Assembly: GCA_034226945.1 (NCBI GenBank)
Contig: CP120458.1
Location: 248,001 to 312,000 of the forward strand
Source of the DNA: Picochlorum sp. SENEW3
Taxonomy: Eukaryota
DNA: 64,000 bases
Direction of reading: 5' to 3'
In this document: positions 3,721 through 35,600 of the stretch, in pieces
Layout of the letters: the number at the start of each line of letters is the position of its first letter
Position numbering within the stretch: position 1 is the stretch's first letter
Position numbers and translations under genes: made by a program
The notes under the pieces: model-generated
Told to the model about the DNA's origin: nothing
The model's database searches: none
What the model saw: the letters and a program-made list of their open reading frames with translations, nothing else

Positions 3721-5295
3721 ATGAATCAACCCAAGAGGGCGCTGAGAGCATCTTTGCTGGCTTCTTCTGCTATATATAGAAGAAAATATTATACTTTTTT
3801 GGATACGCGCGGTAGTAGTCGGTTGAAACGGAGGGGTGTGGTTGTCAGAGCAACAGTTGACTATGAAGAGGATACAACTGGCAGTAGTAATAATAATACC
3901 ACTACGTCTTTTCCTGATGGGATTCAGGGAGCGAAGAATAACATTATGAATAAAGGGCCATCGAAGATCTCAGAAGAGGTCAAGGAAGACGTGGTCGATG
4001 ACAACGTGTCTCAGACGAGTGGAACACTGTGGGGGGCCATGGCACTGATTATTGGGAGTACAATTGGGGCAGGGATACTGGCTCTGCCTGATATTACACA
4101 GGATGCTGGGTTTGTTCCCAGTACGACTGGTCTGGTTGGAGTGTGGGCATTTTTGGTGGGGCAGGCATTGTTGTTGGCAGAGGTGAACATCAATCTGATG
4201 GAGATTCAGGCAGAGGAGGAGGAGGAAGAGGCCACATCATCATCATCATCAGATACTATTCTCACGTTGAGAACAATGGCTGAAAAAACGCTGGGAAAAG
4301 GGGTGGGTAAAGCAGCGACCGGGATATATCTGTCGCTGAGCTACTGCCTCTTGGTTGCATATTTGACAAAGGTGGGAGAAATTTTCTCTTTTGCATCGGA
4401 TGGAAAGCTGCAATCAGGTACCATGGTGGATGTCTTTGCGCTTGGATCCTTGGGCATGTTTATGTTTGGTGGCCCTATGTTTGCTGACAAGTTGAATCAG
4501 GGATTGACGTCAGTGCTGGTAGCGCTGTTCATGTCTATTCTGGCACTGGGGATGGCACATACCAATTTGGATGTGTTGTTTGGTGGTGACAGCGTTCAGT
4601 CCTTCCAAGCTGTCGGCCCTGCGATACCAATCATGTTTCTATCTCTAGTATATCATGATTTGATTCCTCTGATTTGTTCATACCTTGGTGGGGACAGGAA
4701 GAGGACGCAACAGGCCCTTGTTTTTGGGAGCTTGGTTCCATTGGCCATGTTCGTCTCGTGGGAGGCAGTCACATTGTCATTCTTCAAGGAATACAATGCA
4801 TCAGGTATTCACTCTACCGTGTATACATCGGGTCATATAGACCCCGTGAATCTGATGATATCTGCCAGTGGAAGCCCTCTCATTGGCAGCCTGGTTCAGG
4901 GATTTTCCTTTGTCGCCATTGCCACATCATTCCTGGGGACAACCATGGGAGTCTCAGAGACTATTCGATCCGAAGCATCCGAATTCGATACTGATGACGA
5001 GCAAAAGATGGGCGATGACGTCTTGAGAAATGTTGGCCTGACTGCAACGCTCATTCCACCTCTGCTCTTCACCACCTCTGGAGACCCCAAGGCATTCATT
5101 CAGGTCCTGTCCGTAGCTGGTGGCTATGGAATGACTCTTTTATATGGCATTTTCCCTCCACTCATGGCTTGGAAGCTGAGAGAGACGATGAAAGCCCCGA
5201 AATATGCAGTGCCTGGAGGCAACCTCATGTTGGGCTCCTTGCTCAGCATTGGCATATCTCTGGGGATCTACAGAGTCCTCCAGGACGCTCTTTGA
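3721..5295 (+). CDS. Aromatic amino acid permease (TyrP/HAAAP family), plastid-targeted
   Basis: GAMALIIGSTIGAGILALP, LLLAEVN and AIATSFLG; about 11 TM helices; transit peptide ending VVVRA. Confidence 0.88.
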   Translation: MNQPKRALRASLLASSAIYRRKYYTFLDTRGSSRLKRRGVVVRATVDYEEDTTGSSNNNTTTSFPDGIQGAKNNIMNKGPSKISEEVKEDVVDDNVSQTSGTLWGAMALIIGSTIGAGILALPDITQDAGFVPSTTGLVGVWAFLVGQALLLAEVNINLMEIQAEEEEEEATSSSSSDTILTLRTMAEKTLGKGVGKAATGIYLSLSYCLLVAYLTKVGEIFSFASDGKLQSGTMVDVFALGSLGMFMFGGPMFADKLNQGLTSVLVALFMSILALGMAHTNLDVLFGGDSVQSFQAVGPAIPIMFLSLVYHDLIPLICSYLGGDRKRTQQALVFGSLVPLAMFVSWEAVTLSFFKEYNASGIHSTVYTSGHIDPVNLMISASGSPLIGSLVQGFSFVAIATSFLGTTMGVSETIRSEASEFDTDDEQKMGDDVLRNVGLTATLIPPLLFTTSGDPKAFIQVLSVAGGYGMTLLYGIFPPLMAWKLRETMKAPKYAVPGGNLMLGSLLSIGISLGIYRVLQDAL

Positions 5296-5407
5296 TGTAT
5301 CTTTTTTTCGCAAGACCACGTGTACACTAGAGAAGCATTTGTTTGTATTTGTATTGTATTATTTGTACAGTAGTTGTTGTAACCCTGGTGACATTTGAAT
5401 AATCCAC

Positions 5408-31600: not shown

Positions 31601-31720
31601 TTACTAGGATTTATTCACTCATTCGTTGTTTTTTTAAAGTTGTAGTAGTAGTACGTGAATGGAATCCATGTGATCTTTCTCTGTCGAATCGAGTCGATCA
31701 ATACAATTTCTAAGTTGGTC

Positions 31721-32740
31721 ATGTCTACAGAAGAATCTTCGACGTGGGAAGCGTATTTCTCACAAAAGGTTCGATACAGATGTGAACATCGTGATATAGA
31801 ATTTAATATTTATATTTCATTGCCTATTGATGAGATTCAAGGGAATGATACGCCAGTTGTGCTCTGTCTTCACGGTGCTGGGTATTCGGGTTTGACTTTT
31901 GCACCGCTGACGAGAGCGATTGCCAAGGAATGTCCTCAGTGTTGCATTGTTGCGCCTGATCTGAGGGGTCATGGGGATACACGGGCTTTGGATGAGGCGG
32001 ATATGTCTGCACAGACCCTCGTAGAGGATGTGGGAGCATTGCACAGTCATCTCAGGCATGATTGCAACATGTCTGGTCCCCTGATTCTGGTAGGATGGAG
32101 CATGGGAGCGGCGATTGCGGTCAAGTATGCTTGCAGTACAGATGATATATCAGGCCTTGTTGCTATTGATGTGGTTGAAGGGACGGCGCTTGGCTCTCTT
32201 AGGACAATGTCAGGAGTGTTGCAGCAGAGGCCCAAGGGCTTTGCATGCATGTCAGATGCAGTGGCCTGGGCATTGAATAGTGGAACGTCAAGACGTGAAG
32301 AATCGGCCACGATATCAATACCAGGAATGTTGAAGTGCTGTAATAGTGATGTTGAAGGACAACGAAGGGAGGATAAAGATGTATTGAGGCCTCATGGGGG
32401 GCTTGGCAGAATTGCAGAGGGCCCATCATCAGAATCACTGGAAGACAAAGAAGGAATCTCAAACTACAGATATACCTGGAGAGTTGATCTGGCTCGATCT
32501 GAACCCCATTGGGAGGGATGGTTCAAGGGCCTGTCCCAGGCATTTTTGGATGTACCATGCCCAAAGGTTCTGGTGCTGGCAGGGACTGACAGGTTGGACA
32601 AGACGCTGATGATTGCTCACATGCAGGGGAAGTTCCAGCTCAATGTCATACCAAACTCTGGTCACGCGGTGCATGAAGATCAACCAGAGTTGGTGGCTGA
32701 TACAATTACGAATTTTATGACACGGTATAAAATTACATGA
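31721..32740 (+). CDS. PPME1: Protein phosphatase methylesterase 1 (alpha/beta hydrolase)
   Basis: CLHGAGYSGLTF, DLRGHG, GWSMG, IDVVEGTA, LAGTDRLDKTLMIAHMQGKFQ and GHAVHED. Confidence 0.92.
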   Translation: MSTEESSTWEAYFSQKVRYRCEHRDIEFNIYISLPIDEIQGNDTPVVLCLHGAGYSGLTFAPLTRAIAKECPQCCIVAPDLRGHGDTRALDEADMSAQTLVEDVGALHSHLRHDCNMSGPLILVGWSMGAAIAVKYACSTDDISGLVAIDVVEGTALGSLRTMSGVLQQRPKGFACMSDAVAWALNSGTSRREESATISIPGMLKCCNSDVEGQRREDKDVLRPHGGLGRIAEGPSSESLEDKEGISNYRYTWRVDLARSEPHWEGWFKGLSQAFLDVPCPKVLVLAGTDRLDKTLMIAHMQGKFQLNVIPNSGHAVHEDQPELVADTITNFMTRYKIT

Positions 32741-32765: not shown

Positions 32766-32927
32766 CTATTTGGTCAACGTGATTGCTAAAATAATGGCAA
32801 CTGCTATGGCTGCAATCAAGATCATGATCAGTATACAACAAATCATTTTTCTGGATCGCTTTTGTGATTGTTTTGCAGCAGCCAAATGTGTCACGCCAGT
32901 CTCCACTTGAGCTAGGGAACTATTCAC
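32766..32927 (-). CDS. Alternative terminal exon B of the same syntaxin (second half of the SNARE motif plus TM anchor)
   Basis: Acceptor ttcctgcag, then VNSSLAQVETGVTHLAAAKQSQKRSRKMICCILIMILIAAIAVAIILAITLTK-stop. Same phase as exon A and paralogous to it. Confidence 0.8.
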   Translation of the reverse strand: MNSSLAQVETGVTHLAAAKQSQKRSRKMICCILIMILIAAIAVAIILAITLTK

Positions 32928-33073
32928 CTGCAGGAATGTATGTCACATATACCGTGGTGAACTCCCCTCCATGACAGTGATGCACTGGGAAGAAGATGTC
33001 GTGGGCTTGAGAAATACCATTTCGTGTATATAGAAAGAAATAATTCTGCAGACTTGATGAAATGGGCTTGCAA

Positions 33074-34231
33074 TCAGAAACCTGTGGTTGCACCAACAGA
33101 TGCTAAAACAACAGCAACAATGATGATGAGACCCAAAATGATGGCACAACACAGCCATTTGCGAGTTTTTCTTTGACTTTGTTTTGCTGCTTCCAAATGG
33201 GTCACCCCTCCCTTGACATGCTCTACACTCTTGGCAACCTGAACAGGAGATCAAACAAGCGAAATTGCATAGATTATACATACATGATAGTGGGCTTGCA
33301 ATTTCACACACACATACACATGAGACATAATATACCGTACCTGTGCTTCAATGTTATCAATCATTTGTCCTTGAGCTTCTACAAGAACAGCCATATCCAA
33401 GAAAATCTGATGCAATTCCATCAAACTCTTCTCCAAATCCAACACAGCATCACGGCGCTCCCTAATCTCTGCCAGAGTGTCCAACACATACCCTCTCCCT
33501 TGTTCCATGATTGCATTTTGGAAAATCATCTCCCCTTCTCCCTCGTCTATCATTCTTTCAATCTGCTCTTCAGACGCATGTTCTCCCGTCACCGTATACA
33601 CACGCCTCTCAACTGTTTCTTTGTAATCATTTTGCAATTTGACACGAAGATCCTGGAACTCTCCCATCAACTCTTTCAACTTCTTTTTCAAAGCTCCAGT
33701 AATCGCAGTCCTTGTCCGCTCTGAAGCAGATCCTCGACCACACCCCTTCTTTTTCAACGCAACCGCATTCTGAGCATCCAGATCTTTCAAATACGTCTTG
33801 ATCTGCTCCGCCTCCTTTGATATTGTATTTGCATCTTGCTGCATTTGCTCACGCAGCGCATGCACTTCAGCAGTCCTCACAGCAACCTTTGTCTTTTCGT
33901 TGCTATTCTCCAACCGTTTCTGATATTCTTTAATATCCCCCATCAATGCCTTGATCAGAGCAACCTGTGCATAGAACTGATCCATATCAGGATCCTTTCC
34001 ATCAGTCACTGCTGGAGCTTCTATATCAAAAGAGGGCTGCCGTTTCTTACTCTTTCCACCAGAACTTTTTGATCTCTTCCTGGACAGAGAAGACAACAAC
34101 CCACGCCCACCAGAACCAGACTCCTCAGATGCCTGTTGCTGCTGTGCACTAGTAGTTGCAGAAGTACCAGCATGTTGCTCTTGCTCAGTCACAGGGGCAT
34201 CCCCTCCACCCTGAGGATAATTCACATCCAT
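33074..34231 (-). CDS. Plasma-membrane Qa-SNARE syntaxin (SYP1/SYP13-like), isoform A: exon 34231-33341 plus terminal exon 33238-33074
   Basis: Habc motifs (ERTRTAIT, ETVERRVYTVTGE) and the SNARE motif LEKSLMELHQIFLDMAVLVEAQGQMIDNIEAQ. A 102-nt phase-0 intron leads to VAKSVEHVKGG...RKWLCCAIILGLIIIVAVVLASVGATTGF-stop. Confidence 0.9.
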
Positions 34232-34685
34232 GTTAGTCAATCAATACCAATATCATATCCCTCAAGGGCCATCAACGCACCTTTACAAGTCCAAGCAGAT
34301 CGTTCATAATTGGTGGCACTGCGTCTGTCTATAGCAATTACCAGCACAACTACTTGGCATATAGGTTTATAAAAGAATAGATCAATACACCTGAAGAGGA
34401 CCCCAATACTCCTTGAAGATACCGATGGTCGGATGTTGTGAAAATTCCTAGATTAGATGGATTAAAAATCTCTCCGGCGAGTCTTCTAATGCGCCCAGAC
34501 AATCTCCAGCAATCGATTAAAGATATTCCAATTACACACTATTACCACAGAATTCGTGACTACAGAGACTATATATCAATCCATAGACAGAAAGAGAGCG
34601 TTTGTGATCTCCTCGACCGTCGAGTGATAGAACCAACCCAGGTGGCTGTCAAGATTGTCACAAATACATTCTAAAGTAGCAAAGA

Positions 34686-35600
34686 ATGCTGTCAGAAAGC
34701 ACTGGTGGCTCAGGTTCTACCTATGCGAACAAGGGTAAGGCTCTTGTAGGACAAGGTGACAGGAAACTGTTGAGTTTGGGTTGGTTTAGCAATAAATATG
34801 AGGATGCGGCAGAGTTGTTTGAACGTGGGGCGAATCAATTCAAGCTGGGTAAGATGTGGAAAGAGGCTGGTGAGACGTACATGAAATTGGCTGATGTGAG
34901 CATGAAATTGGAGAGCAAGCATGATGCAGCATCGGCACTTGTAGAAGCTGCCAAGGCATTTCAAAAGTGCGAGGGGGAGAAGGAGAAGAGGAAGACAATT
35001 ACCTGTTTGGAACGTGCAGTATCTTTATATACTGATATGGGGAGATTAGGAATGGCTGCGCGGCAATTGAGAGAGATTGCAGAGACTCTGGAAAAGGAAG
35101 AGAGTCATCAGGAATCAATGATGTTCTATGAGCAGGCAGCAGATTTGTTTTTTACGGATCATTCTACAGCTGAATCGAATAAATGTTTATTAAAAGTGGC
35201 TCAATTCTCTGCCGAGGTGGGAAACTATCCCAGGGCTGTGGATATCTATGAGAATGTTGCCAAGGCTTCTGTGGATAACAACTTGCTGCGCTTCAGTGCC
35301 AAGGGATACTTGCTGTTGGCGTGCTTGTGCCAAATGTGTTACATGGATCCTTCTGCTGTAGGGGACAAGGTAGATCAGTACAAGGACATAGATTTCAATT
35401 TTGATGGGAGTAGAGAAGCCAAGCTTGTTGAGGAATGCGTTGCTGCTTTGACTGAGGGTGATTCAGATGCATTTTCTGCAGCAGTGGCAGAGTTTGATTC
35501 TTTGACACGCCTCGACGCTTTCAAGACGGAATTATTGCTGAGGACAAAGAGAAAGATGACGGAAGCACCAGCATCAGATGATGAGGAAGATTTGACCTGA
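34686..35600 (+). CDS. Alpha-soluble NSF attachment protein (alpha-SNAP/Sec17)
   Basis: KYEDAAELFERGANQFKL, DMGRLGMAAR, NNLLRFSAKGYLL, EFDSLTRLD and C-terminal DEEDLT. Confidence 0.95.
   Translation: MLSESTGGSGSTYANKGKALVGQGDRKLLSLGWFSNKYEDAAELFERGANQFKLGKMWKEAGETYMKLADVSMKLESKHDAASALVEAAKAFQKCEGEKEKRKTITCLERAVSLYTDMGRLGMAARQLREIAETLEKEESHQESMMFYEQAADLFFTDHSTAESNKCLLKVAQFSAEVGNYPRAVDIYENVAKASVDNNLLRFSAKGYLLLACLCQMCYMDPSAVGDKVDQYKDIDFNFDGSREAKLVEECVAALTEGDSDAFSAAVAEFDSLTRLDAFKTELLLRTKRKMTEAPASDDEEDLT

Follow-up and report, generated by a model that had tools for sequence, protein, structure and literature searches.

A Picochlorum syntaxin gene with two selected last exons and a probable choice between two splice acceptors

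The window analyzed here is a stretch of 64,000 nucleotides of Picochlorum sp. SENEW3 (contig CP120458.1, positions 248,001 to 312,000; G+C 0.44-0.47). Its minus strand contains a syntaxin (Qa-SNARE) gene with two similar exons at its end, named here A and B, each of which could serve as the last coding exon. The gene was delimited by reading the minus strand from 34700 to 32500 together with its stop-to-stop frames. It starts with a coding exon of 27 nt (34281..34307; ATG, MNDLLGLVK), which gives the N-terminus also found in proteins P0001, P0121, and P0122, followed by a 70-nt GT..AG intron (34211..34280) that corresponds to a contig joint, 34210<->34281, in the sequencing runs X3 and X7. 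The second exon (33341..34210), referred to as the common exon, has 290 codons and codes for the N-terminal region, the Habc/Syntaxin domain, and that part of the SNARE motif which ends in ...MIDNIEAQ; it terminates in ...ATTGAAGCACAG at 33341, immediately before the donor GTACGG (33340). An intron of 102 nt (33239..33340), which is the initial part of the 413-nt intron spliced out in the B isoform, leads from this donor to acceptor A (TTCAG|GTTGCC at 33238, in the context ...CTCCTGTTCAG). Exon A (33074..33238) has 54 codons for the peptide VAKSVEHVKGGVTHLEAAKQSQRKTRKWLCCAIILGLIIIVAVVLASVGATTGF, whose anchor tail ends in ...VGATTGF, and a TGA stop codon (33076-33074). After a spacer of 146 nt (32928..33073), which would serve as 3' untranslated region in an A transcript and as intron in a B transcript, acceptor B (CTGCAG|GTGAAT at 32927, in the context ...ATTCCTGCAG) opens exon B (32766..32927), with 53 codons for the peptide VNSSLAQVETGVTHLAAAKQSQKRSRKMICCILIMILIAAIAVAIILAITLTK, an anchor tail ending in ...AITLTK, and a TAG stop codon (32768-32766). 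Both acceptors are in phase 0 relative to the donor. The two peptides are identical at 24 of 53 positions in an ungapped hand count, and BLASTP aligned them with 15 identities in 24 positions over the SNARE/linker part (E 3e-9); we consider this resemblance to be far above chance because the pair recurs in relatives. The original prediction, made from the letters of the DNA, had described this donor, the two phase-0 acceptors, and both exons with coordinates that all proved correct on rereading of the minus strand, and its peptides and their 24/53 identity match the translations exactly. The end and donor of what it called exon 1 were also right, but this is actually the second exon, the 27-nt exon and the 70-nt intron lying upstream of it.

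The common exon matched Pfam PF00804 (Syntaxin) with an E-value of 3.7e-46 over residues 73-234. A search with this exon retrieved 1802 proteins at E <=0.001; among the best 120, Picochlorum proteins were the closest, and the names among the best matches listed included syntaxin-131, syntaxin-132, syntaxin 1B/2/3, and 'syp12a-group'. Pfam SNARE (PF05739) recognized each last exon on its own, with 44.7 bits for A and 26.9 bits for B (gathering cut-off 26.8). The proteins of both isoforms aligned with the syntaxin-1A, Sso1, and Sso2 chains, their best solved relatives, up to the juxtamembrane KARR. Since the exon boundary IEAQ|V falls at IEYN|V of syntaxin-1A in this alignment, exons A and B code for the last third of the SNARE motif, next to the membrane, and for the linker and anchor. 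Upstream of the boundary, VEAQGQMID of the common exon stands opposite VESQGEMID of syntaxin-1A, and we take the Q in VEAQGQMID to be the zero-layer glutamine. Both exons encode a linker, CC, and a membrane anchor: as read from the sequence, the polybasic RKTRKW of exon A is followed by 26 mostly hydrophobic residues up to the C-terminus, and the KRSRKM of exon B by 25. The alternative exons presumably supply SNARE layers +3 to +8; in this assumed register the layer residues V, S, V, G, L, and A would be equal in A and B, and surface positions and the anchor would account for the differences. Judged by these matches, the gene is a SYP1/syntaxin-1-type (plasma-membrane, Sso1-like) Qa-SNARE of Picochlorum.

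Metagenome contigs were scanned with an alignment of 18 relatives, which yielded 37 loci, and C-terminal exons were sought in these loci by tblastn with both peptides and with a six-frame profile of 39 C-terminal ends. A C-terminal exon of any kind was matched in 30 loci, and four of these (L002, L003, L004, and L026) had two separate full units. The loci closest to the window, by identity of the common exon, were L001 (95%), L002 (84%), L003 (70%), and L004 (69%); the L001 contig ends 10 codons into exon A, and the other three are those with enough downstream DNA. All three keep the GT after ...CAG, both AG acceptors, phase 0, open frames of 52-55 residues, and both stop codons, with an A-B spacer of 151-238 nt. 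Their protein identity to the window is 81-87% in exon A and 85-90% in exon B. Introns and spacers are unalignable between lineages, being 30-57% identical in forced global alignments (42-57% for the A-B spacer). Synonymous divergence (pS) among the three lineages was 0.69-0.96 (0.75-0.96 in exon A), that is, saturated, and nonsynonymous divergence (pN) was 0.08-0.19 in exon A, 0.10-0.15 in exon B, and 0.05-0.13 in the common exon; the contrast between nonsynonymous and synonymous change was significant in six of six comparisons (Fisher p <=5.6e-11). Between near-identical strains, among the differences listed (24 further differences exist in the runs), synonymous changes accounted for 1/1 in exon A, 5/5 in exon B, and 18/19 in the common exon, all of these being at third positions. 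These results indicated that both exons are under purifying selection as coding sequence. Selection on both had been argued for in the original prediction, which also suggested comparing substitution ratios in relatives; this comparison, run as pN/pS on the three metagenome lineages, gave purifying selection for both, and neither exon was absent or degenerate in L002, L003, or L004. We regard the pair of selected alternative terminal exons as a real and well-supported feature of this gene.

Four of 19 sequencing runs (X1, X2, X3, and X7) were aligned to the window, none of them on record as RNA: X1 and X2 behave as DNA, and spliced contigs are present in X3 and X7 (two studies), which are guessed to be RNA. 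Contigs of these runs lose rare variants, and they show the presence of a form but not its absence. The joint between the common exon and exon B (32927<->33341) was found at a depth of 595.6 in X3 and 6.95 in X7. Exon B was also carried by the MMETSP transcripts P0001 and P0124 (99% identical; P0124 is labelled P. oklahomense) and by the Logan contigs P0150, P0152, and P0155 (1.2-1.3 kb), which belong to a P. soloecismus-like lineage (79% identical) and start with the spliced MNDLLGLVKGGG. Joining of the common exon to exon A was found in P0132, an MMETSP transcript of a relative with about 69% identity, and this is the sole transcript with the A junction among the assemblies examined; its sister transcript P0009, also from MMETSP, retains the intron. 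Each junction exists, then, in some Picochlorum transcriptome, and from the selection on both exons we infer that both are formed in one organism. Of the two junctions that the original prediction had proposed to look for, that of B was found in contigs and transcripts of the window's lineage, and that of A only in the transcript of a relative.

Gene models also differ in the exon used: P0122 and P0123 of BPE23 and P0147 of P. soloecismus end in A, and P0033 of P. renovo ends in B, a disagreement between sister-species annotations to which two competing exons would lead. The deposited SENEW3 protein P0121 ('Syntaxin-124 [Picochlorum sp. SENEW3]', 399 amino acids) equals, letter for letter, the first exon, the common exon, residues 1-47 of the 54 of exon A, and exon B. 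This tandem fusion, which passes through a GT within exon A, is most likely an annotation artefact, and none of the four runs listed a joint that links the interior of exon A with 32927. Searches of this region among proteins score cluster representatives only, so that spliced A forms inside clusters are missed: with the B end of P0001, two of 52 candidates matched (the P. renovo model and the cluster of P0001 itself), and with the A end of P0122, one of 24 (an Apatococcus protein). The clusters of 10 further relatives contained only forms reading through the intron. In this family (P0009, P0010, and others), nearly all gene calls from metagenomes and Logan continue beyond the donor that follows ...NIE(A/N)Q and run on into intron sequence.

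As to which copy came first, exon A looks like the only C-terminus that Parachlorella, Micractinium, Chlorella ohadii, and Auxenochlorella have (VAKSVEYVQAG.THL.AAK..QKNTRKWMCC...). In a tree of C-terminal exons (48 columns and 39 rows, the angiosperm SYP132 exons not being among the rows), the Picochlorum A exons formed one clade (99/98) beside Auxenochlorella, Helicosporidium, and Prototheca, with a common ...G..(R/K)GF tail, and the Picochlorum B exons formed another (98/100), on a long branch (1.02) of unsettled deep position. Because of this resemblance and this grouping, exon A is the ancestral-like copy and exon B the derived one; B is nevertheless the junction most often seen.

The layout is not unique to Picochlorum. 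L026, a GC-rich Coccomyxa-like metagenome contig, has one donor and two terminal exons in the region 4100-5310: the donor (...IEAQ|GTGTGT) is followed by acceptor 4596, which opens VGKARNHVQQGVTQLVEAKKLQKKTRKLMCC..., by a stop codon and a spacer, and by acceptor 5143, which opens VSMSREAVQRGTTELVSAKRYFKRSRRCMCF.... About four copies of a tandem unit of about 32 nt (with CTGTTCTGTTACTGTACAGAAG) lie directly upstream of its first alternative exon, and CTGTTCTG-like words follow the exon. The annotated Coccomyxa proteins differ in this respect: the first exon is used in P0043 (C. sp. Obi) and in P0036 (C. viridis), the second in P0047 (C. subellipsoidea). A profile of the B-type exon run against 1.84 billion representatives found 460 proteins at E <=0.001, of which 150 were listed and the tails of P0211-P0299 read. 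Among them were Picochlorum-type B exons called as lone open reading frames (P0211 and P0212) and Coccomyxa-type second exons in at least six clusters (P0213, P0214, P0223, P0226, P0233, and P0294). Last exons of the Chlorella/Micractinium type (P0215-P0222 and P0224), which reach about 70 bits with the B profile, have a SNARE half like that of exon A (VAKSVEYVQAG..KNTRKW) and an anchor like that of B (AAAIAIPIAIKLSK vs AAIAVAIILAITLTK); such a mixture could perhaps reflect a duplication of greater age or an exchange between the copies. P0055, a eukprot model from another alga, is a tandem fusion of two such units. Only a single unit was found in the Trebouxia-like loci L023, L031, and L033-L035 (>1.5 kb downstream) and in prasinophyte-like intron-less loci. 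The phase-0 intron after ...NIE(A/N)Q is common to most intron-bearing chlorophyte loci (L020-L035) and absent from the prasinophyte-like ones. Picochlorum B and the second exon of Coccomyxa (B') have in common the pattern VN.S...V..G...L..AK...KRSR, and in the tree B' (100/100) forms a long branch separate from Picochlorum B, the 48 columns leaving a single and a repeated duplication undecided. To judge from these sequences, the two-exon layout is recurrent or old within trebouxiophytes, though not universal.

The introns around exon A contain a conserved word, AAGCCCAC. Copy 1 (33290..33297, minus strand) starts 59 nt before the first base of exon A, its last base lying 51 nt before the acceptor; copy 2 (AAGCCCA, 33063..33069, minus strand; repeat family D3) begins 5 nt after the exon A stop codon; copy 3 (33001..33008, minus strand) lies in the A-B spacer and starts 81 nt before the first base of exon B. 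The copies at 33297 and 33069 sit in an exact 12-nt repeat, ATTGCAAGCCCA. In the window as in L002, L003, and L004, AAGCCCAC starts 54-59 nt upstream of exon A and has one or two copies in the spacer, and it is the only 8-mer present in both the pre-A intron and the A-B spacer of all three lineages, a result equalled by none of 2000 shuffles. Of the 10 occurrences of the 7-mer in the window, three fall within the 413-nt stretch, all on the sense strand. By analogy, these copies may be considered candidate binding sites of a factor that would repress or time the use of acceptor A. A docking/selector pairing of the RNA was rejected as an explanation, the complement GTGGGYT being absent near the donor in four of four sequences and no unusual fold being found; 9-nt inverted and direct repeats around exon B occur in about the number expected by chance, according to our own estimate.

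Downstream of exon B, the pentamer TGTAA, a possible poly(A) signal, lies at 32733..32737 (minus strand), 31 nt past the first base of the B stop codon, and it is absent from the 146-nt A-B spacer. The original prediction had related it to a 3' end shared by both isoforms. It does occur only after exon B, but it carries little weight for a shared end, since it lies within the last codons of a convergent gene and is not conserved: it is altered at 32735/32736 in three of the four runs (X1, X2, and X3), and in L003 and L004 the 300 nt beyond exon B do not contain it. It was rejected as a conserved shared poly(A) signal. Loose contig ends of X3 at 33032/33033 were likewise ruled out as a poly(A) site after exon A, since the A-run is on the wrong (plus) strand and TA repeats flank it; the X3 contigs diverge at this point with TA-repeat-rich ends, which we read as a strain-specific indel in the spacer. 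The convergent gene (31652..32740, plus strand) codes for an alpha/beta-hydrolase (PF12697, E 3.8e-29), and its stop codon (32738-32740) is 25 nt apart from that of exon B, so that the 3' ends of both genes presumably overlap. In L002, exon B is followed by the same convergent gene. On the other side, a gene of alpha-SNAP type (34680-35600, plus strand; Pfam SNAP PF14938, E 7.4e-92) is placed head-to-head with the syntaxin gene, whose start at 34307 is about 370 nt away. The same arrangement was observed in L001, L002, and L004 and in the more distant chlorophyte loci L007, L008, and L016, and it looks like a conserved bidirectional pair of SNARE-machinery genes.

Several syntaxins with alternative C-termini are known. 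In Medicago truncatula, SYP132 (SYP13II; SYP132A/SYP132C) has alpha and beta isoforms that arise via alternative last exons; the alpha exon has its own acceptor, and deletion of exon and acceptor moves all output to beta (PMC7145992). The two isoforms, also described as products of alternative polyadenylation or termination (PMC6063945), differ in VAMP behaviour and in their role at a specialised membrane (PMC7145992). This is also a green-lineage, plasma-membrane-type Qa-SNARE with proximal and distal last exons in one gene; it differs from the alga in its link to symbiosis and in its multicellular host, and in the alga no 3' end was found after exon A. Since the SYP132 alternative last exon has been dated to the base of dicots (PMC7145992), its origin would be independent of that in the alga. 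In Caenorhabditis elegans, the A and B forms of unc-64 result from joining one upstream exon to terminal exon 8a or 8b, a choice set by UNC-75/CELF on a site in the intron between 8a and 8b, with intron retention as part of the mechanism (PMC4946901). It provides a model for reading the AAGCCCAC copies and the retained-intron contigs of the alga, although it is a tissue-specific animal case and the algal motif has no known binding protein. Vertebrate syntaxin 3A/3B exchange the same protein segment (PMC11476516), as the original prediction had pointed out, by exchanging exons 9 and 10 rather than one terminal exon and, with a retina-specific expression, in a multicellular animal; the isoforms of mammalian syntaxin 2 are a further case of alternative C-termini (PMC4946901). 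The original prediction had also set against these the separate SYP genes of land plants, an account that is incomplete in view of dicot SYP132 alpha/beta (PMC7145992, PMC6063945). It knew of no such layout described in chlorophytes, and our literature searches, whose scope did not extend to subscription papers and supplements, found no report of alternative last exons in a syntaxin of Picochlorum or of any green alga. The two-exon syntaxin is thus apparently unreported in green algae, the device itself being known from dicots and animals.

Based on the data above, we consider it likely that the gene carries a duplicated last exon and that its one donor is paired with either of two acceptors, giving isoforms A and B of the Qa-SNARE. 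In this model the last coding exon would have been tandemly duplicated, and the anatomy of the gene would make the switch a choice of acceptor from a single donor. Pairing of donor 33340 with the proximal acceptor 33238 would give isoform A, of 353 amino acids, and pairing with the distal acceptor 32927 would remove the 413-nt intron, exon A included, and give isoform B, of 352 amino acids. Both isoforms would have the N-terminus, the Habc domain, and the SNARE motif as far as the zero-layer Q in common; what would set them apart is the third of the SNARE motif nearest the membrane, together with the polybasic juxtamembrane linker and the tail anchor. Both would be made in one cell, with a regulated choice; the intronic AAGCCCAC copies around exon A are candidates for the cis element involved, in parallel to the CELF site that lies between exons 8a and 8b of unc-64. 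As for SYP132 alpha/beta and syntaxin 3A/3B, the isoforms may differ in their SNARE partners or membrane domain; a split between cytokinesis and secretion, put forward in the original prediction, would be one such possibility.

A number of observations weigh against this model. No joint between the common exon and exon A was listed in the contigs of the four runs, in which rare variants are lost, and exon A is covered in X3 and X7 solely by contigs that include the upstream intron (33033-33368 in contig 19 of X3, at a depth of 158.6 vs roughly 500-1500 over the common exon, and 33042-33308 in X7), which could represent unspliced RNA or DNA. The transcript assemblies of the window's own lineage all carry B, and the A-type proteins of this lineage are gene models of unstated support. 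No poly(A) signal or 3' end of an A transcript was identified. The pyrimidine tract of acceptor A is better than that of B, yet the B junction dominates, and the model therefore requires a repressor of A, which is unproven. As for the motif, the 7-mer is not enriched window-wide (10 occurrences found vs 9.08 expected); folding of the intron and the spacer does not exceed that of shuffled sequences in stability; and any function of AAGCCCAC would be purely conjectural.

One alternative is a choice fixed by lineage, each species using one exon constitutively (B in the window's lineage and A in that of P0132) and the other copy being an unused relic in the intron or the 3' untranslated region. 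One junction per lineage is what the transcripts contain, B in the window's and the soloecismus-like lineages and A in the P0009/P0132 lineage. However, an unused copy should decay, and both copies are open and 81-90% identical in protein despite saturated synonymous sites and unalignable flanks; in addition, four of four sequences preserve the AG of each acceptor as well as the phase. We consider such a fixed choice unlikely. Very unlikely is a regulated but unproductive choice, in which splicing to acceptor A, or leaving the intron in place, would mainly tune the level of B and the A protein would have no role: intron-retaining forms are frequent, as in contig 19 of X3 and in P0009, but the pN and pS values of exon A would be unexpected if the act of splicing alone mattered, and exon A is the ancestral-like copy and the better SNARE match. 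Inclusion of both exons in tandem, from a donor TCT|GTTGGT inside exon A to exon B as in P0121, with two SNARE C-halves and two hydrophobic segments, is highly improbable. P0121 does equal such a concatenation exactly, and P0055 is a similar model in another alga, but the joint was missing from the four runs, the transcript-derived proteins each carry A or B and never both, the GT of this 'donor' is merely a conserved Val codon, and no tail-anchored SNARE is known to us in which another SNARE half follows the anchor.

Returning to acceptor choice between two selected last exons, the finding extends terminal-exon switching of Qa-SNAREs to unicellular chlorophytes. The swaps of terminal exons in animal and dicot syntaxins are tied to tissue- or symbiosis-specific membranes; the presence of the same device, and strong selection on it, in a unicellular alga of 2 micrometres with a compact genome would mean that it is not a by-product of multicellular complexity, and the phase-0 intron after ...NIEAQ would be a recurrent site of exon duplication. 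Picochlorum is transformable, and this gene would offer a simple and tractable system for determining what the C-terminal third and the anchor of a Qa-SNARE specify. The analysis also points to a candidate cis element by which a chlorophyte may choose between splice sites, and it indicates that the deposited SENEW3 gene model, with A and B fused in tandem, is apparently wrong. As a more speculative extension, which we consider possible but doubtful, the switch may be both old and regulated, the last exon having been duplicated before the Picochlorum radiation, perhaps before the split from other trebouxiophytes, and a sequence-specific RNA-binding protein, acting on the AAGCCCAC copies to either side of exon A, setting the A:B ratio. 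If this were true, an intron-poor unicellular alga would have two functionally distinct plasma-membrane syntaxins from one gene, and terminal-exon switching of Qa-SNAREs would be a recurrent, deeply conserved way of diversifying exocytosis, older than multicellularity.

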